A stretch of 64,000 nucleotides of DNA. It comes from Patescibacteria group bacterium (lineage in GTDB: Bacteria; Patescibacteriota; Minisyncoccia; Minisyncoccales; UBA10102). The notes below the pieces were generated by a model, which did no database searches, was not told the origin of the DNA, and saw only the letters and a list, made by a program, of their open reading frames with translations. Made by a program: the position numbers and the translations under genes. The DNA is taken from assembly GCA_024239055.1 (NCBI GenBank), contig JANBVJ010000002.1, positions 3,874-67,873 of the forward strand. The letters run 5' to 3'. This document shows positions 2,219 to 39,778 of this stretch, piece by piece. The stretch's first letter is position 1. Each line of letters begins with the position of its first letter.

Positions 2219-2661
2219 TAGTAGTAGAAGAAAATTAAAAGTCCTATTATAAGTAATGATAATACTACAAAAATCATGATGTGAATTGCAATTCTTTTTA
2301 TCAATGAGATCGCAATTATTACTGCAATTGCTCCTGCAACAAGGAACAAAATAAATTCGTCAACATGAACAGGAGAAAGAAATTGTATCAAGTCCTCAGC
2401 AAAACCATGTGATGTTTTTAGAAGATCAATACCACTTCCCACCATATCAAGTCCACTATCTTTGAGGTTTTCTGTTTCTGTCTCAGTTGCATTTAGTAAA
2501 TTCGGATCTGAAAAATCTAATTCCTCTGTAAATTCATCTACAATTGTTTCTATTCCACCTTCGATGAATTCTTCGATCTGCTCTGACTGTGCGTAGGCAG
2601 AGGGAATCAATAGTGACACGTACACGATTGATAGAATCAGAATCGCTAGAACTTTCTCCAC
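2218..2661 (-). CDS. secreted or membrane-anchored acidic protein
   Basis: Signal-peptide-like MEKVLAILILSIVYVSLLIPSAYAQ, acidic middle, C-terminal hydrophobic helices. Confidence 0.55.
   Translation of the reverse strand: MEKVLAILILSIVYVSLLIPSAYAQSEQIEEFIEGGIETIVDEFTEELDFSDPNLLNATETETENLKDSGLDMVGSGIDLLKTSHGFAEDLIQFLSPVHVDEFILFLVAGAIAVIIAISLIKRIAIHIMIFVVLSLLIIGLLIFFYY
2615..2624 (-). promoter_or_regulatory. GACACGTACA motif copy (within 5' coding end of 2218..2661, next to the divergent junction)
   Basis: Exact 10-mer, flanked caatagt|GACACGTACA|cgattgatag. Confidence 0.45.
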
Positions 2662-2694
2662 AGTAAAAAATGCAAAGCGTTACTAATAAAAAGA

Positions 2695-3225
2695 TTGAAA
2701 AGTGTTATTTTCTTGAGAGAGTTTTGTGTTATACAGATGAAGGCTAGGAGAAGTGAGATTGACAGCATGATCAATCTATTACTGTATTCATTTCGTAATG
2801 GAAAAAATCTTCCATTCATAATTCCAACAAAAAGTTGCCCTGACCTCAAGCCTTCAAAGAAAGAAAAAAGAAAATCTTGTAAGAAAAGACACTCAGAGAT
2901 TATAATAGAGTCGTATCTATCGGAAGAAAAAAAATTTCATTTAAAGTATTATGGAATGCATACTTCAAAGGATGTGTATGAGTTTGATCAAGATCAATTG
3001 CTTGTAAAACAAATGATAAAAAATAGTCTTAAAAAGAAAAAATATGGTGGTAAAACACTATTGGAAATTAGAAATGTGAAAAAACTCTTGAAGAAAATCG
3101 ATACTGATAGGATAAAACAAATTAACTTTAGGCTTTCTGAGAAGGAAAAGAAGAGTATTACTGCTAAAGCCGAAAAAAGAAATCTAGAAATTTCAGACTA
3201 TATTAGAATGAAATTATTTTCTTAG
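2695..3225 (+). CDS. ribbon-helix-helix (MobC/CopG-like C-terminus) protein
   Basis: One of few plus-strand ORFs. C-terminus INFRLSEKEKKSITAKAEKRNLEISDYIRMKL fits the RHH pattern. True start may be ATG at 2737. Confidence 0.5.
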   Translation: MKSVIFLREFCVIQMKARRSEIDSMINLLLYSFRNGKNLPFIIPTKSCPDLKPSKKEKRKSCKKRHSEIIIESYLSEEKKFHLKYYGMHTSKDVYEFDQDQLLVKQMIKNSLKKKKYGGKTLLEIRNVKKLLKKIDTDRIKQINFRLSEKEKKSITAKAEKRNLEISDYIRMKLFS

Positions 3226-3457
3226 TATCGTTGATTCCTCTATTGTTTGTAAATTCAATTCCTTGAATATTTGTTCTAATGTATTCAATGTCTCCCTGTC
3301 TCCCTGTCTCCCTAAGAAATGTGATTACTAATATAGGTTCTCATAGACACACCATGATTGAAAAAATGCATTTCTAGATCGCTTTTGAGTTGAAAAGAAA
3401 AAGTGCAGTTGGGATATGGGCACATGTGCTTGCCTCCACAACATTTGCATTGTTTTT

Positions 3458-3679
3458 TCAAAGTGCTGGAATTGAAACTTCTTTAGTTACCTCTTGAGTT
3501 TGAGTTTGATTTTGAGATAATATTTCTAAGGAAGTCAACTCCAAACATTCATGTGCACATTGAGCATCATGATCTCTGATTGGTTTGTTACAATTTGTAC
3601 AGTTTATTTTATCTTCCCCAAAACCCATTGTTTTGACATCTATTACAGTTCTTTGATGAAGATTCATTGACCATACCAC
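3458..3679 (-). CDS. zinc-finger protein
   Basis: CTNCNKPIRDHDAQCAHEC cysteine/histidine cluster. Confidence 0.4.
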   Translation of the reverse strand: MVWSMNLHQRTVIDVKTMGFGEDKINCTNCNKPIRDHDAQCAHECLELTSLEILSQNQTQTQEVTKEVSIPAL

Positions 3680-3828
3680 AATTTTTACAAACCTTCATTT
3701 CCAATCAAATAGTTTTTAATTTTCCTCTGCCATGTTCATGATTATTTTTGATATGAAGTGATAATGCAATTACATTGTCTTTCATCTCACCTAAATTTTT
3801 TCCACAATAATCACAAATTGCATCAAAG

Positions 3829-4035
3829 TCAGACATCAATCTCACTTTGTAAAATTCTAACTTTTCTTAGCATCTCATCTCTCATATCTCTGAGAATTCT
3901 TCTAATTGTTGGTCTTGGAACTCCTGTTTCTTCTATTACTTTGTGAATAATTTCATCTTTGTTTGTCAGACCTGCATCAAGAAGTCTTTCAACTTCATGA
4001 ACTACTTTATCTGTTTGATTTGTTTTTCTCATCAT
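3829..4035 (-). CDS. small HTH DNA-binding protein (paralogue of 23408..23662)
   Basis: IIHKVIEETGVPRPTIRRILRDMRDEML aligns with VVNEIGIPRPTVRRIAKLLRDELL in 23408..23662. Confidence 0.55.
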   Translation of the reverse strand: MMRKTNQTDKVVHEVERLLDAGLTNKDEIIHKVIEETGVPRPTIRRILRDMRDEMLRKVRILQSEIDV

Positions 4036-4036
4036 T

Positions 4037-4192
4037 TTAGATACAGATCTTATCCCAACAATTCATACAGTAATGTTTACCAGATTGATTTCTTTGAACC
4101 ATTACTGTTTCCCCGACTAGAAGTTCCTTTCCACATTTTCTACATTCTCTATCTTCCATTCTGATTCTAGGAGTAATTGTAACTTGTTTCAA
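4037..4192 (-). CDS. small zinc-ribbon protein (51 aa, not in ORF track)
   Basis: Hand translation: TTG start in TTGA overlap; ...ECRKCGKELL...HYCMNCWDKICI; alternative ATG at 4159. Confidence 0.4.
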   Translation of the reverse strand: MKQVTITPRIRMEDRECRKCGKELLVGETVMVQRNQSGKHYCMNCWDKICI

Positions 4193-4305
4193 GTTATTCT
4201 TCTCCCACACCTATGACAAATTGTTACTGTTGGTTGTCCGTTCATATCATTAGCGATTATAACACAATGTTCCTCTGCATGACAGTTTACACAGTATTTT
4301 TTCAT
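4189..4305 (-). CDS. small zinc-ribbon protein (38 aa, not in ORF track)
   Basis: ATGA overlap; MKKYCVNCHAEEHCVIIANDMNGQPTVTICHRCGRRIT. Confidence 0.4.
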   Translation of the reverse strand: MKKYCVNCHAEEHCVIIANDMNGQPTVTICHRCGRRIT

Positions 4306-4860: not shown

Positions 4861-4946
4861 GCTTCATGACCTCCACATTGTCTACAAGTAATTGTTCTAT
4901 CACTGTTAATTATCATGTGATTAGAATTGCAGTCATGACAGTTCAT
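4848..4946 (-). CDS. mini zinc-ribbon protein (32 aa, not in ORF track)
   Basis: ATGA overlap with 4943..5248; MNCHDCNSNHMIINSDRTITCRQCGGHEAWGK. Confidence 0.35.
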   Translation of the reverse strand: MNCHDCNSNHMIINSDRTITCRQCGGHEAWGK

Positions 4947-9241: not shown

Positions 9242-9423
9242 CGAATTCCATCCCTCTTTACAATTTTTACTACTTGTTCATAGATGAAAATTTTGGGAAT
9301 ATCATCAAGAAGTTTTGCCATGCTTAATTCCCTGTGACACTTTTTGTAAAACTTCCACCAATCTACTATGCACTTGTAACTTCCATCGTACAAAGGAGTA
9401 GGTTCATCAAATTTGTACTTCAT
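9238..9423 (-). CDS. hypothetical protein
   Basis: 61-aa ORF with 4-nt overlaps. Confidence 0.35.
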   Translation of the reverse strand: MKYKFDEPTPLYDGSYKCIVDWWKFYKKCHRELSMAKLLDDIPKIFIYEQVVKIVKRDGIR

Positions 9424-9653
9424 TTCTTTTTCTCCTTTAGTATTTCAATTTCCAGTTCCTTCTTTGCTTCCTCAATAACCTTTTCAATAATTGGATTGAA
9501 GTTCTTAACGCCTAATCCAATTGAACTCACAAGTGTTATTGTTTTGCTGAAACTCCAACTTGATTGAGTTTCTTTGATTAAATTTGCTTGAACCTCTCTT
9601 AATTTTAACAGTATTTTATCATCAATGATTACTGTAATTCTGGTTCCTACCAT
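9420..9653 (-). CDS. ribbon-helix-helix (CopG-like) DNA-binding protein
   Basis: N-terminus MVGTRITVIIDDKILLKLREVQANL fits the RHH beta-strand plus helix pattern. Confidence 0.55.
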   Translation of the reverse strand: MVGTRITVIIDDKILLKLREVQANLIKETQSSWSFSKTITLVSSIGLGVKNFNPIIEKVIEEAKKELEIEILKEKKK

Positions 9654-10670: not shown

Positions 10671-10895
10671 TCAAACAAGTCCTAACATCTCCCTGAATTT
10701 TTTTGACATTTCTTTCTGGTCATCTGGAATTTTTTCATCCATACTTTTTGCAAGATAAAATAAAATTCTGGTCTCGTTTATTCCACAGTCAGAGCAAATG
10801 TAGGTCTTTTTATCCTCACTTGAAATAGAATTTGTTTCTATAGGTTCTTTTAATCTGATTCTGCCACATCTTGGACACTCCTTCCCCATTCTCAA
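10671..10895 (-). CDS. zinc-ribbon protein
   Basis: CPRCG...CSDCG; likely true start ATG at 10889, about 25 nt after TATA-like CTTAATTATTT. Confidence 0.5.
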   Translation of the reverse strand: MRMGKECPRCGRIRLKEPIETNSISSEDKKTYICSDCGINETRILFYLAKSMDEKIPDDQKEMSKKFREMLGLV

Positions 10896-10946
10896 AACCT
10901 TACACTCGTAAATAATTAAGTGCTCTGTTGATCGGCTTTCCGTTGC

Positions 10947-10956
10947 GACACGTACA
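10947..10956 (-). promoter_or_regulatory. GACACGTACA motif copy (intergenic, upstream of 10671..10895)
   Basis: Exact 10-mer followed by tctttaattgg; about 30 nt upstream of the TATA-like box on the coding strand. Confidence 0.6.
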
Positions 10957-11117
10957 TCTTTAATTGGAATCGAGATAACACCTGTTACAGATCTGATCCT
11001 TTTTTATCCAAAGTCGTGTGCCACAGATTGAACAGGTTGGTTCCAAGAAAAATTATCCATTTTTAGTTGGATTTGAATCTTTAGTGTAAAAAAAATTGAT
11101 TGATCTCTAAATTGAGA

Positions 11118-11437: not shown

Positions 11438-12472
11438 TCACCTCCCTTTTGGTTTTTGTGGTTCGTGATCTGCACAATAAAACTGACCTGCTCCCCAAAT
11501 GTTACTTGTTCTAGTAGACTGACTGTAAGTAATTGGTGTACCACATTTTAAACAAAGTTCTAATCCATCTTTTGCTCTATCTGCAACTGTTCCAAGTTCT
11601 TTCTGTTCTCTTTTATCAAGTTGTTTCTCTCTGTTAATCAGTTGTTGATCCTTCATTGCATGGGCTTTTTGTCTTTTGAATTCATCAAAGACAAGTAAAT
11701 TGTATTCGTTAACACTAAGGTTTGATTTTGAATTGCATGATGGACAACTGCTAAAATGTATTTTCATTTTTGTATCACTGTGTTTTTTTCTAAGTCTGTC
11801 TTTTCTCTTCTGCTCACTCTCATCCTTCTCTTTAACCTGTAAGAGTTTTGCAGTGTTGACTCTGTTGATGTTGTTTCTTCTCTTCTGATCTTTGAAATTC
11901 ACTTCTGTTGCTACTGATTGTGGTGGGTTTGCACCTTGCCAGTAATTGGGATCTGATTGATGTTCAACCCAATACTTTTCTTTTGAGATGATTTGTTGAA
12001 GTTTCTCGTTATCAGTTTCGGTATGTGGTGCTTGCTCTGTTGGTTTTTGTTGTTGAGTTTGTTTTTGTTTTGTTGACTTTGCTTTTTTCTTTAGTTTTTT
12101 TAATCGTTTCTTCTCTCTCTTCTCTTCTGCAACTCTAACTCTTTCAACTCTCTCTACATCTGCAACCTTCCTTCCTCTCTTTGCTTTCCAGATTGCAAGT
12201 ACAACACTTTCCTTTTGTTCAAGCCAGTATTGACAAACTGCTTCTGTTACATTAACTATCTTTGCAATTTCATTAACTGTTAAATTTGGATACTGTTTTT
12301 TCTTTTCAAACATTTTTAAAACTTGATCTTCCGTAGTTGTTTGATAGGTTCTCTTTTGTTTTGGAGGTAGTTCAATTGTTTTTGAAGTGTAGAATACATT
12401 CTTGAATTTTCCAAACCACGAGTTACCTTCTGCCTCCGATTTTACGGACTTGCTTTTAGATCGTATTGACAT
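11438..12472 (-). CDS. HTH, Lys-rich coiled-coil and C-terminal zinc-ribbon protein
   Basis: LTVNEIAKIVNVTEAVCQYWL (HTH-like), long K/E/R-rich middle, CPSC...CLKCG...C; TATA-like TTTATAAATA about 25 nt before the ATG. Confidence 0.55.
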   Translation of the reverse strand: MSIRSKSKSVKSEAEGNSWFGKFKNVFYTSKTIELPPKQKRTYQTTTEDQVLKMFEKKKQYPNLTVNEIAKIVNVTEAVCQYWLEQKESVVLAIWKAKRGRKVADVERVERVRVAEEKREKKRLKKLKKKAKSTKQKQTQQQKPTEQAPHTETDNEKLQQIISKEKYWVEHQSDPNYWQGANPPQSVATEVNFKDQKRRNNINRVNTAKLLQVKEKDESEQKRKDRLRKKHSDTKMKIHFSSCPSCNSKSNLSVNEYNLLVFDEFKRQKAHAMKDQQLINREKQLDKREQKELGTVADRAKDGLELCLKCGTPITYSQSTRTSNIWGAGQFYCADHEPQKPKGR

Positions 12473-12558
12473 AGCATAGGAAATGTTCTCATTATTTATA
12501 AAGTTGTTTGTTTTTAAAACAAAGAAATGTGTGCCTAAATTACCTGTCTTTCCAGTGT

Positions 12559-12568
12559 GATACGTACA
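12559..12568 (-). promoter_or_regulatory. GACACGTACA motif variant (GATACGTACA) in divergent intergenic region
   Basis: ccagtgt|GATACGTACA|tctttgatttg; shares flanks with other copies. Confidence 0.55.
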
Positions 12569-12659
12569 TCTTTGATTTGTTTACATTGTCCGTATTGGAA
12601 CCTGTCTGTTCACATTAAGTGTAATAAGTGTTAAATACTAAATCCATACCTAGAATAAT

Positions 12660-13079
12660 ATGTCACAAACAGTAGAACCCTCAAGGGATGGCATGATGGA
12701 CAAAATTAATGTAGACTTCAAGTTTCAAGCACTCAGACCTTACTTTGATGAGGATGAAGAACCAAGAAACTGTTATGCTGTAACTGTAAGTTACAAAGAC
12801 AAAAGTACAAAATTCACCTATGGTGATTCACTTGCAGACACACATGACAATCTCAAACCAAAGAAACGAGATATTTTAGAAATCATAACGAGTGATTTCT
12901 TCTACACCAAACATAACTATCCAACATTTGGTGACTTTGCAAAAGAAATGGGTTTGAGTGAAGATTCAATCAAAGGACTTGAGACATACAAGAAGTGTCT
13001 TTTACAAGGTAAGAAACTTCACGATGTCTTTACGGAAGATGAAATCTACAATCTTAGTGAGGAATTAGACGATGCATGA
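12660..13079 (+). CDS. hypothetical protein (plus-strand island)
   Basis: 139-aa ORF with ATG start; no competing minus-strand ORF. Confidence 0.5.
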   Translation: MSQTVEPSRDGMMDKINVDFKFQALRPYFDEDEEPRNCYAVTVSYKDKSTKFTYGDSLADTHDNLKPKKRDILEIITSDFFYTKHNYPTFGDFAKEMGLSEDSIKGLETYKKCLLQGKKLHDVFTEDEIYNLSEELDDA

Positions 13080-13356
13080 ATGTCCCCACTGTGGTAGTAA
13101 AACCATAACTTGCAGACATTGTAGTTGGACTTGGAATCCAAGAGATCCAGAAAATCTTCCAGATACATGTCCACGATGCAGAAATAAATGGAGTGTTCCT
13201 TTCAAATGGACTATCAAATCAAAGTACGGACATGGTACACTTGATCCATCATTGAAGCAAGACAAGGAAATGAAAGACTACAGAGAGTACATGGAGAAAA
13301 AAGCCAAATGTCTAGATAAGTTGACTGATGCTGAGAAATATGAAATCAGTGTTTAA
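13072..13356 (+). CDS. zinc-ribbon protein (plus-strand island)
   Basis: CPHCGSKTITCRHC...CPRC; 8-nt overlap with 12660..13079. Confidence 0.5.
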   Translation: MHECPHCGSKTITCRHCSWTWNPRDPENLPDTCPRCRNKWSVPFKWTIKSKYGHGTLDPSLKQDKEMKDYREYMEKKAKCLDKLTDAEKYEISV

Positions 13357-13477
13357 CCCATTTTTTCATTTTATTTTTTATTATCCACCAAGTACGCTTG
13401 TTGACTGCAATACGGAATTTGTGTTTTCTTTTAGAATATCTTAGATAACCAAAGCCATTGCAGTAGGCTTCGTACAT
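13346..13477 (-). CDS. possible small basic protein (43 aa)
   Basis: Trimmed from ORF 13346..13570, whose 5' part reads through a motif copy. MYEAYCNGFGYLRYSKRKHKFRIAVNKRTWWIIKNKMKKWVKH follows an A/T-rich TATA-like box. Confidence 0.3.
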   Translation of the reverse strand: MYEAYCNGFGYLRYSKRKHKFRIAVNKRTWWIIKNKMKKWVKH

Positions 13478-13521
13478 TAGAAGTTGTCTCTTGAATTTTT
13501 TTAATTCTTTGTTTCCAATCA

Positions 13522-13531
13522 GACACGTACA
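13522..13531 (-). promoter_or_regulatory. GACACGTACA motif copy
   Basis: Exact 10-mer followed by cctgtgattcaacg; lies between the plus-strand island and 13710..13982. Confidence 0.55.
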
Positions 13532-13709
13532 CCTGTGATTCAACGAATACGAAAAAAAGACCGTAGCCAAGTTTTCTTTGATTTCTTTCTTTCTCCCATC
13601 GTGTAAAATTTATGATAACAAGAAAAGCAGACCAAACTATCATCCACTAACTGAATTTCCGGTATTCTTCCACAATCATGACACTTGTGAAGTTTCCAGT
13701 TTATTTTGG

Positions 13710-16220: not shown

Positions 16221-16519
16221 GCTTCGTATTCTTGTGTAAGATCTGGATGTCTTTGAGTTTCAAGAACATAGCCCTGCTTTCCTTTTGTGTATTTGTCGAG
16301 TGGAATGATTTGTGATTTGATTCCAAATTTGTAGAACTCCTTTGCAATTGACTGTAACACATCCTTGCGTTCATGAAATGCAAAGAAGAATGCATCCATG
16401 TTTTCAGAATCAATTCTTTTTGAAATTCTTCTGTTATCAAATGAAAGACCGGATCTATCTCTACTCCATAACATTACGCCTTGAAAGAATGGTTGTTTTC
16501 CTACCTTACTCATCCTCAT
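16190..16519 (-). CDS. hypothetical protein
   Basis: 109-aa ORF; preferred over the same-strand alternative-frame ORF 16204..16440. Confidence 0.4.
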   Translation of the reverse strand: MRMSKVGKQPFFQGVMLWSRDRSGLSFDNRRISKRIDSENMDAFFFAFHERKDVLQSIAKEFYKFGIKSQIIPLDKYTKGKQGYVLETQRHPDLTQEYEAWYKDLGGLN

Positions 16520-16742
16520 TCACCTTGAAGTCCTTAACTTTTAGATCTTCATTCATATATAGTCGTTGAAAATCTTCTGATGTTTTTTCACTACGCTTCT
16601 TAATCTCATCAATGTGTTTCTTCCTTTCAACATCTACTTTCTTTTTTTCTTGAAAATAATCTGCGATCCAACCGTTTACAACGTCTTGAGTGTACACGTA
16701 CACCTTTGATTGATCCTTTGGCAGAGGTTTTCGTTTGATCAT
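16506..16742 (-). CDS. hypothetical Lys-rich protein
   Basis: 78-aa ORF; contains a motif variant near its 5' end. Confidence 0.4.
   Translation of the reverse strand: MIKRKPLPKDQSKVYVYTQDVVNGWIADYFQEKKKVDVERKKHIDEIKKRSEKTSEDFQRLYMNEDLKVKDFKVNEDE
16693..16702 (-). promoter_or_regulatory. GACACGTACA motif variant (TACACGTACA), intragenic
   Basis: TACACGTACA followed by cctttgattgatcc; the conserved downstream flank supports a true copy. Confidence 0.4.
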
Positions 16743-17802: not shown

Positions 17803-18170
17803 TATTTTACCAACCTCTTGTTAACAAGTTCTTTACTACATCGCAAACACATAGTTCCCATTATTTCCCCTCCAAGTCTGTATCCGTATGAAGGTGAATT
17901 AGATATTATAGGACTTGATCTCCAACTACGTTCTTCTTTCACATCAAAACCACAAAGAGAATACTTTTTGTTTCCGAAAACAATATGCATTCTTCTTACA
18001 TTATCTGTATCACCAGTTTTGTGTAGTGAAAAGAATTTCATTTTTAGATCAACTACAAACTTTCTTGGTTTGTATGAATCTGTTTTTCTATCGAAATAAC
18101 ATAGACATTCTGTATCTATTCTACCTGCATCGAATGCAGTATCCTGTGGAAATATTGTTAGTTTACTCAT
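17802..18170 (-). CDS. hypothetical protein
   Basis: 122-aa ORF; C-terminal CLRC. Confidence 0.45.
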   Translation of the reverse strand: MSKLTIFPQDTAFDAGRIDTECLCYFDRKTDSYKPRKFVVDLKMKFFSLHKTGDTDNVRRMHIVFGNKKYSLCGFDVKEERSWRSSPIISNSPSYGYRLGGEIMGTMCLRCSKELVNKRLVK

Positions 18171-18445
18171 TTTACCAACCTCTCTATGAAGTAGTCAACC
18201 TTGATTCTCTTTCCTTCTTTGTATTTTTCAGAACCAACAACTCCCAAGTCTATAAGTCGATTGATTGTTCTGTTTGCAGAATGAGAATCAAAATCATAAT
18301 CTGTTTTTAATTCGTACAAAGTCACTCTATCTTTTTTCTTTAGAATGTTGATCATGTCTCTATCCTTTTGAGTCATCTCTGATTCTAGTATCTGTGTAAT
18401 CAGTTGTTCCTTTGATTTGGTTTTTAGTTGTTCTAACAAAGTCAT
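18167..18445 (-). CDS. winged-helix DNA-binding protein
   Basis: DRVTLYELKTDYDFDSHSANRTINRLIDLGVVGSEKYKEGKRIKVDYF fits an HTH plus beta-wing pattern. Confidence 0.5.
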   Translation of the reverse strand: MTLLEQLKTKSKEQLITQILESEMTQKDRDMINILKKKDRVTLYELKTDYDFDSHSANRTINRLIDLGVVGSEKYKEGKRIKVDYFIERLVK

Positions 18446-22058: not shown

Positions 22059-22074
22059 GACAGTAGTAGTAGTT
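22059..22074 (-). promoter_or_regulatory. conserved promoter-proximal module AACTACTACTACTGTC (copy 1) with adjacent TATA-like TTTATTAA
   Basis: Identical 16-mer at 22059, 32759 and 38163, each 3-8 nt upstream of an ATG and just downstream of an A/T box. Confidence 0.6.
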
Positions 22075-22163
22075 AATAAAACCGATCACTCTATGTGCGA
22101 AGAAGTGCACAAACAGTTTTTTATATTCAAAATTTTCAAAATTGTGCGTAATGTTTCCAGTGT

Positions 22164-22173
22164 GACACGTACA
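22164..22173 (-). promoter_or_regulatory. GACACGTACA motif copy (intergenic)
   Basis: ttccagtgt|GACACGTACA|catcttaatca; one of two copies 60 bp apart. Confidence 0.6.
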
Positions 22174-22223
22174 CATCTTAATCAAACAAAAAACCTTTCT
22201 TTGCAAAAAAACGTTTCCAACAT

Positions 22224-22233
22224 GACACGTACA
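22224..22233 (-). promoter_or_regulatory. GACACGTACA motif copy (intergenic)
   Basis: ttccaacat|GACACGTACA|catctgcgtg. Confidence 0.6.
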
Positions 22234-22290
22234 CATCTGCGTGAAAAAAATAAAAAATAACGAAGAACTCACTGGAATTTTTACCCTGAC

Positions 22291-25226: not shown

Positions 25227-27694
25227 TAAATTTCCTCTCCACTCTTCTTCTTGATCACTGGAACTTTTAATTTTCTAGCCTCTTTTCTAGTTGGTAATAG
25301 TGAACTTTCTTTTACTACCATTAGTTCTAACATTGATTTTCTTATTTCTGCTTTCTTTGGCAGTTTTATTTTTTCTGGATTTTCACCATCTGTAACACAT
25401 CGACTTTGTTGATTCTTGTACAGTAATCTATTCCATTTGACCTTTAAATCATATTCAAATACTTTTGTACCACCACGTTGTTTGATTTTTGCCATTATCA
25501 AATGAACCCGAACTCTTGCTTTCTTTGCTCCTTTGCTTTTGCTTCTTCCTTTTCTTATCAATCTTCCAATTACTTGTTCAAACTTTGCATAAGTGAAAGG
25601 ATATACAGCAAAGATTATGTTACCAGATACTTTTTGTAAACCATCAAAACCTTCTGAAAGTGCTGATGAACAAATTAAAACATCTCTACCATTATTGAGG
25701 AATGGATCTTTACCACTTTTTTCTTTTCCTGTATAGATACCTACTGAGTATCCTTTTTCTTCAAGTCTTTGTTGTAACTTTTCTACTATTCCTGTAACAT
25801 ACTCACAATAAATTATGGTTTTTCCTTTTATCCTTTTGATTATTTCAGGGATTTTTCCTTCTAATGCTATCTGTTCATAGTTTAACCAATGCATTTTTTC
25901 TAGGTCTTTTAATGTACAACCTTCTGGTAAGTAAGATGTAACTTCAATCAGATCTTTTTCATTTAATCCAATTACTTCTATATTCAGATTTCCCATAAAT
26001 CTCATACAGTAAGGCAAAAATAGAGTATGAAGGCTTGATGCGTTTCTAACTGTACTTGTTTCTCCAACATTTTCTAATGCTTTCAATAATTCTTTATCAT
26101 TATGAGCACATAACTCTAACATTGATTTGCCTTCTTTGATGTTATTGATTACAGGTGTTGCTGAAAGACATAATACTTTGATATTTTTTAACTTTGCAAG
26201 TTTTCTAATCAAATGATCTACTGAATATCTTCTCAGAGATTTTGTCTCATCATCTCTAACTTTGATGTTTTGTGCTTCATCAAGAATTAGAAAGTCTATT
26301 GGTTCTTGTTTTATTTTTGAAATTGTTGTTCTAACATCTTTGATACTGAATTTTTCATAGTTGATTATATGGTAGTTTGCTACTCCTTTGACAAACTTGT
26401 GTGGTATCTTACCTACTGATATTACTGAATTTGGAAAACACTCCAATAGTTGTTCTCTCCATTGTTCTAAAATCGAATTTGAGCATACTATCAATGTATA
26501 TTTTGAATTTACTACCCTTGTAGATAGAATTCCTGCAATTGTTTTTCCTCTACCTGAACCTGACATGTTAAAGAATCCATCTATCTGTGTCATTATCCAA
26601 GCGTTGAAAAATTGCATTAGTGTTGGCTTGATCTTTGGATTCCAACCATCAGGAACTTTTATGTTTTTTACTTCATCATATTCAGATAAGAAAGTCTTTA
26701 CCACAGTATCATGGAATTTATTTCCATTTAGTTTTTCTTTTTTGATTTTTGCTACTACTGAATTTCTTATTTTATTTTCTTTGCCAACTGCTGATTTCCA
26801 AAAAAACTGACAAGTAATTACTACATGTTGATCAAAGGTTTTTGGATTAAGTGCACTATAATCTATATTTCTAATATCTTTTAGAAGTTTTCTAGCATCT
26901 ATATTATCTTCATCTATTATTTTTGATCTATCTTTTGATTTTGTGATTAAAGTCTGTGTATCTATTTTCTTCCCTTCTGGATTTACAACAATACCTCCAT
27001 CTGTTAATGCCATATTACCATAGGGTTTGTCAAATCTCTCGGTTCTAGCCCAATATAATAACGCCTTTCTACCTTGTGGAGTTTTTCTTAAATCCATAAA
27101 GTTGTTGAAATATGATCTTCTGAATAGATTTTTGTCTTTGAAACAACCCTCTGCATCAAACCATCGATACAAACTCCCATCTGTCCATATCTTGTAAAAT
27201 GACCAGTGTTCTCTTAATCTTATAATTACATCTCTAATTCTTTTTTTATCTACCTCATTTTTATTTTCTGTTCCAAGAAAACCATACCATCCTCCCCTAC
27301 CCTTCCAATCTTCATCAAATACATCTGGTTCCTTAACTCTGGACTTTGATGTTTTAGTTAATTCCTTTGTAAATAATTTTAAGAATTTTTTATCTTCTTT
27401 AGTGGTAACGAATAATTTTCTTTCATTAAAGAATTTTTCCAACTGTTTACTTGTATATTTTGAATATTTTTTACTCCAATTTTTTTGTACTTCGTTTAAT
27501 GCCTTTGTTATTGCTGTTCCTCGTTTCTTTTTTAGGATTCCTGTATAGTGTTTTTCCCACCAAAGTTCTTCAAGGTACTGAGTTCTTTCAACCTTCTTTG
27601 TTTTACCAGTGACACGTACATCATTGAAACCTTTTGGTAATACCTGCCCTGTGCTTAAATCAATTTTATTGTCTAAATCATTTGCCATTGCCAT
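25226..27694 (-). CDS. SNF2/SF2-family helicase (822 aa)
   Basis: Walker A MSGSGRGKTIAG; motif II LILDEAQNIK; motif III LSATPV; motif VI QVIGRLIRKG. The N-terminal region carries W.GW..FLG repeat-like elements. Confidence 0.85.
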   Translation of the reverse strand: MAMANDLDNKIDLSTGQVLPKGFNDVRVTGKTKKVERTQYLEELWWEKHYTGILKKKRGTAITKALNEVQKNWSKKYSKYTSKQLEKFFNERKLFVTTKEDKKFLKLFTKELTKTSKSRVKEPDVFDEDWKGRGGWYGFLGTENKNEVDKKRIRDVIIRLREHWSFYKIWTDGSLYRWFDAEGCFKDKNLFRRSYFNNFMDLRKTPQGRKALLYWARTERFDKPYGNMALTDGGIVVNPEGKKIDTQTLITKSKDRSKIIDEDNIDARKLLKDIRNIDYSALNPKTFDQHVVITCQFFWKSAVGKENKIRNSVVAKIKKEKLNGNKFHDTVVKTFLSEYDEVKNIKVPDGWNPKIKPTLMQFFNAWIMTQIDGFFNMSGSGRGKTIAGILSTRVVNSKYTLIVCSNSILEQWREQLLECFPNSVISVGKIPHKFVKGVANYHIINYEKFSIKDVRTTISKIKQEPIDFLILDEAQNIKVRDDETKSLRRYSVDHLIRKLAKLKNIKVLCLSATPVINNIKEGKSMLELCAHNDKELLKALENVGETSTVRNASSLHTLFLPYCMRFMGNLNIEVIGLNEKDLIEVTSYLPEGCTLKDLEKMHWLNYEQIALEGKIPEIIKRIKGKTIIYCEYVTGIVEKLQQRLEEKGYSVGIYTGKEKSGKDPFLNNGRDVLICSSALSEGFDGLQKVSGNIIFAVYPFTYAKFEQVIGRLIRKGRSKSKGAKKARVRVHLIMAKIKQRGGTKVFEYDLKVKWNRLLYKNQQSRCVTDGENPEKIKLPKKAEIRKSMLELMVVKESSLLPTRKEARKLKVPVIKKKSGEEI
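27611..27620 (-). promoter_or_regulatory. GACACGTACA motif copy, intragenic (5' part of the SNF2 gene)
   Basis: accagt|GACACGTACA|tcattgaaacc, 75-84 nt into the ORF. Confidence 0.4.
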
Positions 27695-29711: not shown

Positions 29712-30475
29712 TTCAATCTCTCCAATAGTTCTCTGACAGCAGTTGCATTCAGTTTTGCAAATCTAAGATTAAAGTCACCATCTGCTCTTTGTTGTAGTTC
29801 TATCTCTGTTCCATTGGGAATTGATTCCTTTTTGATGTTAAGATAGTTTCCTTCTCCCAATGAACTATAATGTGTTGTTTCTTTTCTACCGAACCCAAGT
29901 TTTTCTGCAAAGTCTGGAAATGATTTTGATAGTTTTTCTTGACTCTCCCTCTCCTTTACACCAATCAAATGATTTTCTCTATTTATTTTGAATCTTCTTT
30001 GGAGTTCTGTTACAAGTTCATTGAGGATTTCATCAAGTCTGTCAATATTTGTTGGTGTAACTCGTTTTTCAAGTTTCCTTGTTAGTCCCTCTTTACTGTA
30101 ATCGCTTCTTGAATTACCTACACTTAGTTTGATTGAAAGGAAACCATATTTGTAATCATAACCTCCCCTAATAGGAACAACATCTAATTTTTCAGATGTT
30201 GTAGAATATCCATCGGGAGAAACAGCACTTGTTTTACAAAAATTGAATTGTCCATTTCTGATTTTTTTCTTTGTATGACTACCATACATATCCTTAACTG
30301 TATAGATGTCAAAGTTAAACTCTATTTTTTCTTTTTTGTCGTTAAACAAATCTCTTACTTCAAGAGATAACTTTGGATCTAGTTGCAGGACTTTTTTCTT
30401 TATTTTTAGTAATACTGAACGAGTTTCGTCAATAGTCCAAGTCTGCAATTTTCTTTGTGTGTACAATCCAGTCAA
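29708..30475 (-). CDS. hypothetical protein
   Basis: 255-aa ORF. Confidence 0.45.
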   Translation of the reverse strand: MTGLYTQRKLQTWTIDETRSVLLKIKKKVLQLDPKLSLEVRDLFNDKKEKIEFNFDIYTVKDMYGSHTKKKIRNGQFNFCKTSAVSPDGYSTTSEKLDVVPIRGGYDYKYGFLSIKLSVGNSRSDYSKEGLTRKLEKRVTPTNIDRLDEILNELVTELQRRFKINRENHLIGVKERESQEKLSKSFPDFAEKLGFGRKETTHYSSLGEGNYLNIKKESIPNGTEIELQQRADGDFNLRFAKLNATAVRELLERLK

Positions 30476-30996
30476 TTTCTATCTCTCCTTTTTACTTCTG
30501 CATTTATGTCAAAAATAGATGTGTACGTTTCACTTTTTAGTACGTTTTCAATACTTTGAACTATACTATCGATTTCGTATGGCTTGAAGATAACTGCATT
30601 GACTTTTAATCTCACCAATTCTTTTTCTTCTTCAACACTGAATAATTCATCTCCTATCACTATGATTATCTTGGATTGTTGATCAAATTTTCTTATTGCT
30701 TTCAGAGCATCAAGTCCTTCAAAATACTTGTTATCAGGATCAGGCATGTGTAGATCAATAAGGATTACATCAGGTTTGTGTTCTTTGTATAACTCGACTG
30801 CTGTTCTTCCATCGAATCCTCTTGCAACAATATCAAAATCGTGGATAGATAGATATTCACAGAATACTCCAACGGTATCACGATCATCATCTATTACAAC
30901 TACTCTTGTATCAGTCAAAGTAACACCTTTAGATTTTTTTCTGCTTTGTCTAGAAGTTCGGTTAAGAGTGAGTTGTTTGAATTTACTTTCTTCCAA
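30472..30996 (-). CDS. stand-alone response-regulator receiver (CheY-like REC) domain protein
   Basis: VVVIDDD (acidic pocket), DVILIDLHMPD (phospho-acceptor Asp), IIIVIGD, AVIFKPY (conserved Lys). An alternative TTG start at 30918 would make a TTGA overlap with 30915..31139. Confidence 0.8.
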   Translation of the reverse strand: MEESKFKQLTLNRTSRQSRKKSKGVTLTDTRVVVIDDDRDTVGVFCEYLSIHDFDIVARGFDGRTAVELYKEHKPDVILIDLHMPDPDNKYFEGLDALKAIRKFDQQSKIIIVIGDELFSVEEEKELVRLKVNAVIFKPYEIDSIVQSIENVLKSETYTSIFDINAEVKRRDRN

Positions 30997-32758: not shown

Positions 32759-32774
32759 GACAGTAGTAGTAGTT
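32759..32774 (-). promoter_or_regulatory. conserved promoter-proximal module AACTACTACTACTGTC (copy 2) with TATA-like TTAAATGC
   Basis: Identical 16-mer; the first ATG is 5 nt downstream. Confidence 0.6.
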
Positions 32775-32889
32775 GCATTTAAGTCTGATCGCAATTTGAT
32801 TATGAATATAATGGACTGTTTGTGCATTTGCTCGCACAAATCAGGTCTTTAACGCTGGCACAGTCGTGGAGCAAGCAGGTCTCAAGTGA

Positions 32890-32899
32890 GACACGTACA
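32890..32899 (-). promoter_or_regulatory. GACACGTACA motif copy (intergenic)
   Basis: Exact 10-mer followed by cctctgattcaatgag; 9 nt past the stop of 32908..33165. Confidence 0.6.
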
Positions 32900-32907
32900 C
32901 CTCTGAT

Positions 32908-33165
32908 TCAATGAGAAAAAAACGGTATTACGCCTAAGTCCGAATCCTTGAATTGATACTCATATTTTATGTCAGTTGAAAACTTAATTCTTTTTGAATT
33001 TGATGGTTTGAATGGATATGTAGGACTGCCATATTTTTCCAAGTCTGAAAAATATTTTGAATCTAAATTGTGTTCAAATTTTTCGTGTATAGCAATAGAT
33101 AGTGATCCTTTACGGATTGCCTTACAGTAGGCACATTGAAACTTCCTTTTCCTTGAGTATTGCAT
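32908..33165 (-). CDS. C2H2-type zinc-finger protein
   Basis: FQCAYCKAIRKGSLSIAIHEKFEH. Confidence 0.5.
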   Translation of the reverse strand: MQYSRKRKFQCAYCKAIRKGSLSIAIHEKFEHNLDSKYFSDLEKYGSPTYPFKPSNSKRIKFSTDIKYEYQFKDSDLGVIPFFSH

Positions 33166-33221
33166 ATACCGTTCATCATAATTCGATTAACACCTGAATT
33201 CTTAAACTTTGTTTCACTTGT

Positions 33222-33231
33222 GACACGTACA
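33222..33231 (-). promoter_or_regulatory. GACACGTACA motif copy (intergenic, upstream of 32908..33165)
   Basis: cacttgt|GACACGTACA|tatcttaatca; about 15 nt upstream of TATA-like AAGTTTAAGAA on the coding strand. Confidence 0.6.
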
Positions 33232-33362
33232 TATCTTAATCAAAAATTTGGTATTTTCTAGCATCGACTTTGTGCTTACATTCACGATTTGAGCAAGTAA
33301 CATAAGTGTCACGTTTGGATTTTGTAATCCAAACACGATCACATTCAGGGCATTTGAGTTTC

Positions 33363-36829: not shown

Positions 36830-37161
36830 TTTAGAATACCTCCTTCAAAAATTTTGGTACTGATGTTTTCTAATTCAACATCTGGTGAATGTCTACCATG
36901 AACATACACATTTTTACCGTTTTTGTCTAGGTATGAATACTGTGTAGAAGTTTGGTATCTATGTTGAAAACCATAGGTACAGTCAATTTTTCTTCTTCTA
37001 CCAAGTCTAAGTTTTCCAACTTGAACGTTGATAGATTTGAAGTGGTCATAATCTTTTTGTGCATCTTCTTTAGTGCCAAAACACATGACACCAAAGTTTT
37101 TTGCGTTGAAATTCCATTGTTGGGCTTTGTCAAATACCCAATCTATGCTTGATTTACTCAA
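36826..37161 (-). CDS. hypothetical protein
   Basis: 111-aa ORF; preferred over the alternative-frame ORF 36927..37133. Confidence 0.45.
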   Translation of the reverse strand: MSKSSIDWVFDKAQQWNFNAKNFGVMCFGTKEDAQKDYDHFKSINVQVGKLRLGRRRKIDCTYGFQHRYQTSTQYSYLDKNGKNVYVHGRHSPDVELENISTKIFEGGILN

Positions 37162-37862
37162 GAGGCATCTACCTCCTGAATAATTGCTTTCTTGTCAACA
37201 GTGATTGTTGAAGCGTTCTTGTACAATGCAAGTTCAGTTCTGTCACCAAAACCATAACTACTTCCATAGTATTGCTGACCGTTTTTGATGTATCCATTTC
37301 TGATTGTTATAGAGTCACCTTCATTGACTGAATCTGTCTGACCATTCCACAAAGTAATTACGATGTGATCTTCTCTTTCATCTTGAAGAGTTACTTCACA
37401 GACTTTGTAATTCTGACCAGTTTTCTTTGATGTTACATCTCTGACTTTGGTTTTTTTGATGATAGTTCCACGAACATTGATTCCTTTTGTTATTTGGTAT
37501 CCTTGAATCACTTGCAAGTGGGTTGTTGTTAATAGTTCATACAATTCCTTGTTTCGTTTGATATTTGCATCACTCTCGAACATTTGTTCAATTGTTACAA
37601 ATTCAGGTAAAACAAAGGTTTGCTCAACTACTGTAGGTTGACAGTCTTTGTATTTTTTTGTCTCTGTATGTTTTGCAACTTGTTGTAATGCTCTGTCCTG
37701 ACCTGATGCTCTGAATTCTTTTCCACATTCACATGTTGGTTTGAATCCCAATGTGAGATATGCACCACGCAAATGTTTTCCTTCTAGATCCTCAAAAAGA
37801 GTTTCAGGTGAACCAATAAAAGTTAGTTCAGTATCCATTGCTTGGTTGTAGTAGCCTGTCAA
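37158..37862 (-). CDS. OB-fold (RPA-like) single-stranded DNA-binding protein
   Basis: VRGTIIKKTKVRDVTSKKTGQNYKVCEVTLQDEREDHIVITLWNGQTDSVNEGDSITIRNGYIK fits the archaeal/eukaryal RPA OB-fold pattern. Confidence 0.55.
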   Translation of the reverse strand: MTGYYNQAMDTELTFIGSPETLFEDLEGKHLRGAYLTLGFKPTCECGKEFRASGQDRALQQVAKHTETKKYKDCQPTVVEQTFVLPEFVTIEQMFESDANIKRNKELYELLTTTHLQVIQGYQITKGINVRGTIIKKTKVRDVTSKKTGQNYKVCEVTLQDEREDHIVITLWNGQTDSVNEGDSITIRNGYIKNGQQYYGSSYGFGDRTELALYKNASTITVDKKAIIQEVDAS

Positions 37863-38158
37863 TTGTGACTACCTCCAATTGGTTTTGTGAAGCCGAAGTT
37901 ATTCTCAATTCCGTTGAAGTGATCAACGATGAGCAATTCTGCTTCAAGTTTGAAATTTCTATGTCTGAGATTTAACTGTCGTTTTACAACTACAGGTCTG
38001 TCAGATACAGACTTTGTGCCAAAAAAATTTGAGGCTTGAATATGTTCTGAATCAAGTGCGAGAACTGATAAGTGCTCATCTTGATTCATGCCGGAATCTC
38101 TTACAAGTAGATCTCCTAATGTGAAAGATTCCAAGTTGGTACTATTCTTGTGAGTCAT
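37859..38158 (-). CDS. hypothetical protein (first gene after promoter module copy 3)
   Basis: MTHKNSTN...; shares the MTHKN start with 41764..42600. Confidence 0.45.
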   Translation of the reverse strand: MTHKNSTNLESFTLGDLLVRDSGMNQDEHLSVLALDSEHIQASNFFGTKSVSDRPVVVKRQLNLRHRNFKLEAELLIVDHFNGIENNFGFTKPIGGSHN

Positions 38159-38162
38159 AAAA

Positions 38163-38178
38163 GACAGTAGTAGTAGTT
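38163..38178 (-). promoter_or_regulatory. conserved promoter-proximal module AACTACTACTACTGTC (copy 3) with TATA-like TTTAATAG
   Basis: Identical 16-mer; ATG 4 nt downstream; GACACGTACA copy 27 nt further upstream. Confidence 0.6.
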
Positions 38179-38204
38179 GCTATTAAACCTGTCGAATCGA
38201 CCCT

Positions 38205-38214
38205 GACACGTACA
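38205..38214 (-). promoter_or_regulatory. GACACGTACA motif copy (intergenic)
   Basis: Exact 10-mer about 50 nt upstream of ATG 38158. Confidence 0.6.
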
Positions 38215-38364
38215 CAGTTGAGTTGTCCGTTAAATCGCACATACACTTACTCATATAGAAAAAATCTCCTTCCTAAGTCATGGTTAGTTTGGTCATATCA
38301 AGATGGAGAAATCCCTGAAAAATCGACACCAGAGGGTTAAGAGTTATCAGGGAAAATCTCATCT

Positions 38365-38550
38365 CTATAATTTCAATTTCAAGTAAACGTATCTGCTTTC
38401 CAATTCTTCTTTGAACTTTTCTTTGGTAATTCTGCCTGATGAGAATACCAGATTTTCAATAGTAATTTTTTTTATTTTATCCTTTAATTCGTATTCATTT
38501 TCTGCTTCGATTATAAGATCTCTTGGCACTAACGAAATCTGGAAATACAA
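38365..38550 (-). CDS. hypothetical protein
   Basis: 61-aa ORF, weak support. Confidence 0.3.
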   Translation of the reverse strand: MYFQISLVPRDLIIEAENEYELKDKIKKITIENLVFSSGRITKEKFKEELESRYVYLKLKL

Positions 38551-38715
38551 TTAGTCATAACCACCAAGTTTCCACTTCTTGATGTACTTCCATAGAACTT
38601 TTGTCATTTCAGGTGGAGTTAACTTGTTTTTTCCAAAAAGTTGTTCTACTGTTTCAGTGCATCCTTCAAAAGCGATGTTGAAACCACCAAAAGGTACTTT
38701 TTTAGCCAAAGTCTA

Positions 38716-39705
38716 CTACTCCTTGTTTGCTTTCTTTATGATTTGAATTTTGTGTTCATGTAATTCAGTATTTGGTACTAGGAATACTTCTTCTTTAATT
38801 TTGACTGTGGTGTGAGTAATACCTATGTGCGTTACTTCTCCTTCCTTTCCTTCATATTTTATTTGATCACCATTACCTAATCCACTGTGTTTAAGTCCTT
38901 CACCATAAGACCAACTTCTGAAAACTTCTCTGAATCCGGTTCCACCTGCAATCAACAGTCCCATAATACCTGCAATGATAACCCAATAAAGAATTGGAAT
39001 AATCTCTTCACCAACACCAAGTTGTGTGATTCCTATTCCGAATATCAGTGCATAAATGATTACTGTTACAAGTGTTTTTACCATTGGCATACTTCCATCG
39101 TCACCGAAAAGATCAGAGTTGAATTTAGCCATCCACTGCAAAATTACTCTTGTACCAATAATTCCTACAACAATTAGAATTATGAATGCAATAATGTTTG
39201 GAATGTAAGTCCATAATACTCCAAGCCATGAAGATGCTTCTGTAAATCCTAACAAGTCAATTGCAATTACAAATGCGTAAATCCATGCAAACCACTTTGC
39301 AGTCATTGGAATTAGATCAGAGATTTGTCCCCAACCTGCTTTCTCATAAGTTTCTCCTGCTTTAATTCCACCTTTCTCTACGAGAAGTTTGTTTGAGAAA
39401 AGTTTCTTTAGGAATTTTCGTAATGCAAACTCTACAGCACGACCAATAAAGTAACCAATACCTAAAACTATGATTGCTGATAATACTCCTACACTGTTAA
39501 CTGCAATTGTATCTCCCCAACTTGAGAAGAGTTTTATCCAGAACTGAAAAAATGGATTTGATTCCTCAACTCCTAAAAACTCGGATACTGGTTGTTTTTC
39601 TTCAATTGCCTCTTGAGCAAATGCCAATGGAGCAAATAGAGTGCCCGACAGCATGATTGATACCGTTGATAACAGTAGAATGATTCCCCATTTGCCCTTG
39701 ATCAT
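38716..39705 (-). CDS. MscS-family mechanosensitive channel-like membrane protein
   Basis: Signal-like N-terminus and several TM helices, then GLLIAGGTGFREVF...GLGNGDQIKYEGKEGEVTHIGITHTTVKIKEEVFLVPNTEL, matching the MscS pore helix plus beta-domain pattern. Confidence 0.65.
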   Translation of the reverse strand: MIKGKWGIILLLSTVSIMLSGTLFAPLAFAQEAIEEKQPVSEFLGVEESNPFFQFWIKLFSSWGDTIAVNSVGVLSAIIVLGIGYFIGRAVEFALRKFLKKLFSNKLLVEKGGIKAGETYEKAGWGQISDLIPMTAKWFAWIYAFVIAIDLLGFTEASSWLGVLWTYIPNIIAFIILIVVGIIGTRVILQWMAKFNSDLFGDDGSMPMVKTLVTVIIYALIFGIGITQLGVGEEIIPILYWVIIAGIMGLLIAGGTGFREVFRSWSYGEGLKHSGLGNGDQIKYEGKEGEVTHIGITHTTVKIKEEVFLVPNTELHEHKIQIIKKANKE

Positions 39706-39768
39706 TGGTATCCTATCATTCCAATAAGGGCTTTAAAAGAATTTCTGTGATCGCTTCATATCGTATGC

Positions 39769-39778
39769 GACACGTACA
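39769..39778 (-). promoter_or_regulatory. GACACGTACA motif copy (intergenic, upstream of the MscS-like gene)
   Basis: Exact 10-mer followed by catctgattctacg; TATA-like TTTTAAAG at 39731-39738. Confidence 0.6.

Follow-up and report, generated by a model that had tools for sequence, protein, structure and literature searches.

What does a 10-nt sequence, GACACGTACA, do when it recurs at ten places in 64 kb of DNA and always points the same way? The question is raised by positions 3,874 to 67,873 of contig JANBVJ010000002.1 (assembly GCA_024239055.1). This stretch of 64,000 nucleotides, here called the window, makes up about half of a metagenomic contig of ~135 kb (134.9 kb) labelled Patescibacteria. 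The analysis showed that the repeat belongs to a selected, promoter-associated cis-element, which is found at the upstream boundary of most transcription units between 2.6 and 41.5 kb of the window, its replication and repair region. As to its role, the element is regarded as a candidate binding site of a sequence-specific DNA-binding protein upstream of co-regulated promoters and, in addition, as a substrate for recombination, a reading to which we give an even chance of being right.

Enrichment and extent of the repeat

All ten exact copies of GACACGTACA lie on the plus strand, and dinucleotide-preserving shuffles gave a mean of 0.01 copies with a maximum of 1. When up to one mismatch was allowed, 13 matches were found where 1.48 were expected (maximum 5). 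Two of the additional matches, GATACGTACA at 12559 and TACACGTACA at 16693, had been listed together with the ten exact copies in the first-pass annotation of this DNA, and the recount agrees with its coordinates and its single orientation; the enrichment over shuffled sequence, which it had proposed as a check, is confirmed by the counts above. The third match, on which it was silent, is GAAACGTACA at 30522, which is located on the opposite strand in coding sequence, carries no flanks and is no more than chance would give. Over the 229 kb of 21 related contigs, the element is present in 68 copies on the gene strand and in none on the reverse strand.

Since the genes of the window are nearly all on the minus strand, the motif reads TGTACGTGTC in the sense of transcription. 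On the plus strand the core is preceded by GTTTCCAGTGT and followed by CCTCTGATTC or CATCTTAATC, and alignment of the copies reproduced these flanks as they had been described before. For 25 distinct loci from the window and related genomes, the alignment gave the gene-strand consensus 5'-TTGAATCA-RA-GG-TGTACGTGTC-aCa-yTkGAAAC-3', about 34 nt in length. The conserved block extends from -12 to +22 relative to the start of the core and holds ~34 bits, and no conservation was seen outside it. The 10-mer of the first-pass annotation is thus real, but it is just the core of a longer element. The information profile is asymmetric, the core being the most invariant part and the right flank the least conserved.

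The best copies show 6-bp inverted arms around a 7-bp spacer (AGGTGT-ACGTGTC-ACACCT). Over the alignment, these arms (columns 10-15 and 23-28) pair in 61% of cells, which is equal to shuffles, and they are not conserved. T-runs precede about 11 of the 25 loci, and many cores have, 10-25 nt upstream, a stretch that is T-rich or reads TGATTAA. The view that T-runs belong to the element or act as terminators was rejected on the grounds that they carry only 0.1-0.3 bit per position, stand at a variable distance and often fall within the last codons of the upstream ORF (open reading frame).

The 42-64 kb part of the window is occupied by an array of a leader family, with 13 sites at 43391..58258 (minus strand) and at least 13 paralogues sharing the N-terminus MKGF(K/T)DSNNKFHPI..KGVRKSRD. 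This N-terminus is encoded by AACAACAAGTTCCATCCGATAA, present in 13 copies against 0.06 expected, and further members were found past the start of the window, in L009 (L001 to L055 designate related metagenomic contigs or loci). As previously noted, no true copy of the element was found when the window was scanned over this array, and the unit boundaries there are element-free. The array holds only coding look-alikes, TGTACGTAGT at 45445 and 48585, which score far below the element copies. On the minus strand these two positions read CAAAGGTGTACGTAGTCGAAGG in two leader-family genes (codons K-G-V-R-S-R-R), a sequence that recalls the left half of the element and 7 nt of its core; the likeness is probably a coincidence. 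An origin of the motif as a remnant of the leader-family N-terminus (KGVR codons) was rejected, as GGTGTACGT is present in only two of 13 paralogues and the rest of the element is missing.

Position of the copies relative to genes and promoters

Named by the first position of their core, eight window copies are plainly intergenic (39769, 38205, 33222, 32890, 22224, 22164, 12559 and 10947), three lie within coding sequence (2615, 16693 and 27611), and 13522 is situated between the stop of a short ORF and a small gene. The earlier statement that most copies occupy non-coding gaps therefore holds, with 13522 as a borderline case. When all gene-strand ORFs of at least 50 aa were taken as coding, 6 of the 12 copies fell in the 8.6% that is non-coding (P = 2e-4). 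Independent gene calls, available for five related loci, placed 23 of 24 copies in intergenic DNA, at a pooled intergenic fraction of 0.141 (P = 6e-19).

The element usually starts within 6-11 nt of the stop codon of the preceding gene. For copies with a long open upstream frame, this frame stops 14 times at the TGA of TGAATCA (-11) and five times at TAA (-7). Downstream, a TATA box follows the element at 13-120 nt for nine window copies and for copies in L002, L028, L050 and L052. The TATA-like boxes that had been reported shortly after four cores were recovered 26 nt (10947), 14 nt (33222), 17 nt (38205) and 30 nt (39769) past them. At 9 of the 11 readable unit starts, the ATG is preceded at 26-33 nt by the start of a TATA-like A/T-rich octamer, and the interval contains no Shine-Dalgarno sequence. 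Archaeal TATA boxes are centred near -26/-27, and the placement found here is the geometry of leaderless archaeal mRNAs. In the window, neither sigma-70-like sites (55 against 68.9 +/- 8.1 expected) nor hairpin terminators (9 against 7.7 +/- 3.4) are enriched. A bacterial promoter reading was rejected, because sigma-70-like sites are not enriched and the 17-nt spacing between core and TATA box occurs at one locus only.

Upstream of the operon for the single-stranded DNA-binding protein (SSB), three lineages (the window, L002 and L050) share a core-to-TATA distance of 16-18 nt, and this copy is retained even where a divergent cassette is its left neighbour (L050, L054, L055). Four copies have a divergently transcribed upstream neighbour: 12559 in the window, 7425 in L050, 9519 in L054 and 2608 in L055. 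Because these copies stand in divergent promoter regions, the element is tied to the downstream promoter and not to the 3' end of the upstream gene. The positional part of the earlier proposal of an operator or upstream activating sequence (UAS) is supported in that the element precedes the TATA box of a subset of units.

The "gaps" of 80-340 nt between 3.2 and 34 kb contain tiny ORFs of less than 50 aa, encoding CxxC...CxxC zinc ribbons and AN1/HIT-like zinc fingers, which are mostly missed by gene callers. As most of the other gaps between 2 and 42 kb hold such zinc-ribbon ORFs, nearly every true unit boundary from 2.6 to 41.5 kb carries the element.

Conservation in related contigs

Comparison of the window with L002, whose helicase is 77% identical, showed intergenic DNA that is barely alignable, in which the element is intact except for single-base changes in the flanks. 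The mosaic relatives L050, L052, L054 and L055 share with the window both the element and its junctions, namely between the HATPase and MscS-like genes, upstream of the SSB operon and before the Ku unit. Protein identity of the window to L050 and L052 ranges from 31 to 98%. Conservation of motif position in related genomes, on which the first-pass annotation had made its proposal depend, was thus observed: place and orientation are kept while the surrounding non-coding DNA diverges.

A scan of metagenomes with GAATCANNGGTGTACGTGTC returned 29 stretches, of which 16 are low-GC contigs of the same family with one to five copies each. The GTDB genomes scanned with the 20-nt pattern gave only seven single chance matches, in high-GC bacteria. 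In the sampled loci of L003, L004 and L005 the element was not found; L003 has one CGCTACGTACT after a T-run. L007 and L008 (helicase 41% identical) have no element. They carry an 8-bp palindrome, GTACGTAC, three times, always intergenic (L007 1950, 15278 and 19634), as well as AACTTG-N3-CAAGTT palindromes and a conserved promoter of the form CTTTATAAGA..ACGTTATAAC..ATG.

Gain and loss of units at the element

In L028, a two-gene unit of 1.97 kb is inserted exactly at the single copy located at 21869 in L002 (corresponding to window 10947), with one copy on each side of it. The outer flanks of this pair (left of the left copy, right of the right copy) agree with L002, which places the crossover within the core. 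The unit (L028 598..2587) encodes proteins of 226 and 413 aa, which resemble ParB and PAPS reductase (SGGKDS motif) by eye only.

The locus between the zinc-ribbon gene and the Ku unit was found in five states with one to three copies, each cassette being bounded by copies. L002 has one copy. Two copies surround a small zinc-finger ORF of ~185 nt in L039, L041 and L055, a different small zinc-finger ORF in L034, and an 85-aa gene in the window, L025, L038, L042 and L045, while L054 has three copies around two cassettes. Clustering of the flanks showed that left and right flanks of the element pair many-to-many. Every cassette has its own TATA box. Among 48 structural differences of at least 60 nt between family contigs, only nine (~5 unique events) have a boundary that lies no more than 45 nt from a copy. 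Mosaicism is thus general in the family, and most of these differences do not require the element.

Role of the element

According to the reading favoured here, a DNA-binding protein, encoded by the carrier of the repeats or by its host, would dock on the double-stranded element and co-regulate the promoters behind it, the element being an upstream activator or operator site. Since its copies present ~34 nt of identity in direct orientation, they would also serve as a recombination substrate, and whole units consisting of element, promoter and genes could be inserted, deleted and exchanged there.

The lack of RNA structure, together with the copies in divergent regions, points to a function on duplex DNA. 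An RNA hairpin (GGTGT-ACGTGTC-ACACC) was rejected, as its pairing equals that of shuffles (61%), covariation is lacking, RNAalifold predicted no structure and no Rfam family matched. The window contains no sequence complementary to the core apart from a one-mismatch reverse match in coding sequence.

Several points weigh against a regulatory binding site. The dyad symmetry or half-sites typical of dimeric archaeal regulators were not found in the element. We calculated that ~13-14 bits would be sufficient for ~12 sites in 135 kb, and the ~34 bits found here, with an invariant core of 7-10 nt, are unusual for a transcription-factor regulon. The variable distance from core to TATA box (13-120 nt) is a poor fit for an activator that contacts the TATA-binding protein or transcription factor B. 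At least six unrelated upstream genes have their stop codon embedded in the element, which could for this reason belong to the 3' end of the preceding gene.

No binder was identified, and the candidates, a helix-turn-helix (HTH) protein of 344 aa, a NikA-like ribbon-helix-helix (RHH) protein and a winged HTH (wHTH) protein, are weak. Residues 35-90 of the 344-aa protein (11438..12472), whose gene directly follows copy 12559, gave a weak match of homeodomain/TetR-like type (E = 0.007). A single-sequence structure model predicts a confident three-helix segment at residues 48-85 (predicted local distance difference test score, pLDDT, ~87-92), for which Foldseek gave local, non-significant matches to HTH domains only. 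Of the three regulators suggested in the first-pass annotation, the RHH protein at 2695..3225 showed a significant but short NikA/MbpA-like match (residues 139-171), the wHTH protein at 18167..18445 matched weakly, and the protein at 9420..9653 had no domain match. A 251-aa protein of the SSB operon with a weak PaaX_M match was rejected as the regulator, its AlphaFold2 model having a pLDDT of 71.6 and no PDB fold at E <= 0.001.

The first rival explanation is a dedicated site-specific recombination site, part of an integron-like capture system of an archaeal mobile element, which we consider unlikely. An unrecognised recombinase would exchange strands in the asymmetric core TGTACGTGTC, self-contained units made of site, TATA promoter and gene would be inserted and excised at many places, and the array before the Ku unit, with 0, 1 or 2 zinc-finger cassettes, would be the most active locus. 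Such a site would account for the cassettes flanked by direct copies, the crossover mapped inside the core (L028 against L002), the five configurations of one locus with 0-2 small cassettes bounded by copies, the many-to-many combination of flanks and the direct orientation of all copies. The core is also the most invariant part, as expected of an overlap region, and the best copies have inverted arms of 6 bp with a 7-bp spacer. However, these arms are not conserved, and no integrase, recombinase or transposase was detected by Pfam or NCBIfam in the window ORFs scanned. With 9 of 48 structural differences near a copy, most of the mosaicism can do without the element. The copies at core operons, moreover, keep their place and TATA spacing across lineages, and each cassette brings its own TATA box.

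A terminator or roadblock at unit boundaries, where a bound protein or the sequence itself would halt RNA polymerase arriving from the preceding unit, is rather improbable. Its position 6-11 nt past the stop of at least six unrelated genes, at variable distance from the promoter, would suit such a function, as would the T-runs before ~11 of 25 loci and the tandem pairs after long units, and the function would depend on orientation. However, the copies at 12559, L050 7425, L054 9519 and L055 2608 face a divergent gene and have nothing to terminate. The T-run often precedes the stop of the upstream ORF, so that termination there would yield mRNAs without a stop codon; a hairpin is absent, and an exact core lies inside the helicase gene.

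We rate as equally improbable a promoter or start-site element for a dedicated polymerase or initiation factor of T7-like type, with transcripts starting in or just past the core. Promoters of T7-type phages are 23 bp long, and sets of them are rich in information, point one way, stand at unit starts with a distance to the start codon that varies, include tandem pairs and now and then have a copy in coding sequence. The element shares these features, and many cores have the T-rich or TGATTAA stretch 10-25 nt upstream. Against this, canonical TATA boxes stand downstream at the distance of leaderless mRNAs, no RNA polymerase gene was found among the large ORFs of the window, which covers about half of the contig, and the T-rich stretch is low in information (0.1-0.3 bit per position) and variable in spacing.

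A signal at the RNA level, such as a 3' untranslated region (UTR) or processing site or a sequence with which a small RNA pairs, is very unlikely: the element right after stop codons may be transcribed as a 3' UTR and its invariant core would suit base pairing, but neither conserved structure, covariation nor an Rfam family was found, the window offers no complementary sequence except the mismatched coding match, and the copies in divergent regions need not be transcribed in this sense.

Least plausible is a replication element (origin recognition boxes (ORBs), iterons or priming sites), an alternative raised in the first-pass annotation. A loose likeness to the GGAA(A) half of archaeal mini-ORBs can be seen in the right flank (CACTGGAAAC or CTTGAAAC), and the strict strand bias parallels the uniform GC skew. 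The ORBs and mini-ORBs of Pyrococcus, however, depend on conserved TTCC and GAA motifs and are clustered at oriC (PMC1904270); in the element TTCC is absent, GAAAC at +17..+21 is weakly conserved within the least conserved flank, and the copies are spread over 39 kb. The cumulative GC skew of the window is monotonic without a switch, and ORBs and iterons were rejected on the lack of TTCC, of clustering and of a skew switch. A packaging role, the other alternative mentioned there, is unlikely for 12 dispersed copies.

Comparison with known repeats and regulatory sites

The intergenic repeats of halovirus HF2 and the haloferacalesviruses comprise class I of 58 bp and class II of 29 bp and have been shown to carry promoters; in class I, a conserved alpha block lies upstream of a TATA-bearing beta block (PMC8707807). 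Like the element, they are situated at the starts of transcription units, and their place and orientation are conserved among relatives. They contain the TATA box and start site at fixed positions, whereas the element contains neither and is followed by a TATA box 13-120 nt further on. The sequences are unrelated, and in place of a haloarchaeal tailed virus the carrier is a low-GC element from sediment, as yet unclassified.

PeSLs (promoter-early stem-loops) are mobile regulatory cassettes of T4-type phages (PMC2839356, PMC4122927). Both PeSLs and the element are short repeated motifs that begin at the upstream stop codon, precede small and often unknown genes and occur at insertion, deletion and replacement junctions of close relatives; recombination between PeSL copies shuffles modules. 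A PeSL consists of a sigma-70 promoter and a terminator stem-loop, whereas the element has no promoter inside and no stem-loop, and its archaeal-type promoter is separate. It also has one invariant 10-nt core, and most indels of the family occur without it. The kind of element is thus known, with HF2 repeats and PeSLs as the closest cases, and its sequence, architecture and host family are new; it lacks the defining features of both.

Among archaeal activator sites, the nearest analogue is the GvpE-responsive UAS of haloarchaeal gas-vesicle promoters, which has 20 nt with two conserved 8-nt portions and lies upstream of the TFB recognition element (BRE) (PMC2241852). In both cases a block in one orientation stands just upstream of BRE/TATA, the core of the SSB-operon copy ending 16-18 nt before the TATA box. 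The GvpE site directly adjoins the BRE, while the element is longer, far more invariant and spaced by up to 120 nt. With the attC/attI sites of integrons, the element shares cassettes between direct sites at the ends of cassette genes and a cassette number that varies per locus. It differs from them in that no integrase was found in the ~60 window ORFs scanned, that it is a conserved sequence and not a folded imperfect palindrome, that the cassettes carry their own promoters, and that copies also head conserved core operons.

The carrier sequence

The window encodes an SNF2 helicase, Ku, an ATP-dependent ligase, an RPA-like OB-fold SSB, a HerA/DUF87-like ATPase, a methyltransferase, a HATPase protein, a receiver-only response regulator, an MscS-like protein and a NikA-like RHH protein, and most other ORFs could not be assigned to a family. 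Searches of ~60 window ORFs against Pfam, PHROGs and NCBIfam revealed no recombinase, integrase, transposase or clear transcription factor. No tRNA genes and no Rfam matches were found in the window. Because of the promoter geometry and the RPA-like SSB, the carrier is treated as an uncultured archaeal-type virus or plasmid, and the bin label "Patescibacteria group bacterium" of the metagenome-assembled genome is probably a binning artefact. Among helicase homologues, a single distant one bears the label Nitrososphaeraceae; homologue searches with the SSB and the 251-aa protein returned family members only, under names that were neither informative nor taxon-bearing. Parts of the same genome are present in Logan SRR8799001 and ENA ERZ23499938. 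A known phage or virus was rejected, since INPHARED phages gave no nucleotide or protein match and no relatives were found in IMG/VR by protein or by three DNA patterns. An alternative genetic code with TGA as a sense codon was also rejected, given the length of the ORFs and the 4-nt overlaps of adjacent genes, which are those expected of ATGA-type start/stop junctions.

The family of the carrier consists of large low-GC mobile elements from deep-sea and other sediments with almost no annotatable genes, and the repeat provides a first view of regulation in it. The putative regulon would include the SSB, Ku, ligase, SNF2 helicase, HerA-like ATPase and methyltransferase. The core is a specific search tag, as the 20-nt pattern retrieved 16 further family contigs from metagenomes, and the 34-nt element can be used as bait for DNA-affinity experiments or DNA affinity purification sequencing (DAP-seq). 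If the gain and loss of whole units at the element is confirmed, evolution by "mobile regulatory cassettes", as in T4-type phages, would extend to archaeal-type elements.

Individual copies and neighbouring features

All copies described below are on the minus strand. A degenerate 13th copy (41522..41555, core TGTACGTTAA at 41534..41543, left flank TGAACTCTGTT) lies in the gap upstream of the HATPase-like gene. The copy at 39757..39790 (core 39769..39778) separates the HATPase-like gene (39839..41386) from the MscS-like gene (38716..39705), with a TATA box at 39731..39738, 30 nt downstream of the core. The same junction with the same element is present in L018, L044, L050, L052 and L054. Just upstream of this copy, a direct repeat ACCTCTACCTC(TAG) was found at 39792..39829, and also at ~3165..3205 in L050 and ~1135..1150 in L054, being kept in distant mosaic relatives. 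The HATPase-domain protein (515 aa) and the receiver-only response regulator (30472..30996, 174 aa, Response_reg E = 1e-15) may, from their domains, form a two-component-like signalling pair on a mobile element.

The copy at 38193..38226 (core 38205..38214) precedes the SSB operon, which consists of a 99-aa gene (37859..38158) and the RPA-like SSB gene (37158..37862). The TATA box of its promoter occupies 38180..38187, at a distance of 17 nt downstream of the core, and next come CTACTACTACTGTC and the leaderless ATG at 38158. Two copies flank the 85-aa C2H2-like gene (32908..33165), which is clearly coding by its substitution pattern. The first (33210..33243, core 33222..33231) starts at the stops of a small zinc-ribbon ORF, with TGA at -11 and TAA at -7, and has a TATA box at 33200..33207, 14 nt past the core. 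In the second (32878..32911, core 32890..32899), TGAATCA supplies the TGA with which the 85-aa gene ends. The promoter after it consists of an inverted repeat (32819..32840), a TATA box (32776..32783) and CTACTACTACTGTC (32759..32772), and the unit downstream contains a 112-aa gene, Ku, the helicase and the ligase.

The core-only copy at 27599..27632 (core 27611..27620) falls on codons 25-28 of the SNF2 helicase, in a variable linker. It has poor flanks and the lowest score of the exact-core copies, is not present in the helicases of L002, L003 and L004, and is probably non-functional. After the ligase unit, two copies form a tandem pair 60 nt apart, the first at 22212..22245 (core 22224..22233), which is intergenic by independent gene calls in L001, and the second at 22152..22185 (core 22164..22173); tandem pairs recur in L002 (13494/13598) and L027. 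The second is followed by an inverted repeat (22094..22113), a TATA box (22074..22081) and CTACTACTACTGTC (22059..22072), and the unit behind it holds the HerA/DUF87-like ATPase.

CTACTACTACTGTC is identical between the TATA box and the leaderless ATG at the three promoters mentioned, being located at 38163..38176 in that of the SSB operon. The same place is taken by CCACCACCACTAAT in L002 and by CCACGACTACGACTAC in L050, and the block is promoter-proximal and lineage-specific. The inverted repeat TTTGTGC-N7-9-GCACAAA between element and TATA box of paralogous promoters, present at the two window positions given above and at ~8535..8560 in L002, looks from its sequence like a palindromic operator of a second regulator.

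The variant copy at 16681..16714 (core TGTACGTGTA, 16693..16702) covers codons 14-17 of a conserved small ORF (16506..16742). A block of ~31 nt with core and flanks is kept in L002 with one substitution, and the core and left flank recur in L027, L030 and L050. At 13510..13543 (core 13522..13531), a short upstream ORF ends at TGA (-11), and the copy lies at the 5' edge of a small gene (13346..13570); orthologous copies were found in L027, L030, L033 and L046. The variant copy at 12547..12580 (core TGTACGTATC, 12559..12568) is situated in a divergent promoter region, between a plus-strand gene (12660..13079) and the 344-aa gene, with a TATA box at 12496..12503, 55 nt downstream. At 10935..10968 (core 10947..10956), orthologous to L002 21869, a small zinc-ribbon ORF ends at TAA (-6), and the TATA box at 10913..10920, 26 nt past the core, is followed by a 74-aa gene (10671..10895) with a GGAGG ribosome-binding site. 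The last copy (2603..2636, core 2615..2624) falls within 2218..2661, on codons for its signal peptide, and the divergent NikA-like RHH gene (2695..3225) starts 71 nt away.

Two further repeats were observed in the window. TGTCTCCC occurs three times at 3289..3313, adjoining the NikA-like gene, and a 52-bp tandem repeat with two copies and 96% matches is located at 59056..59160 in a gap of 412 nt.

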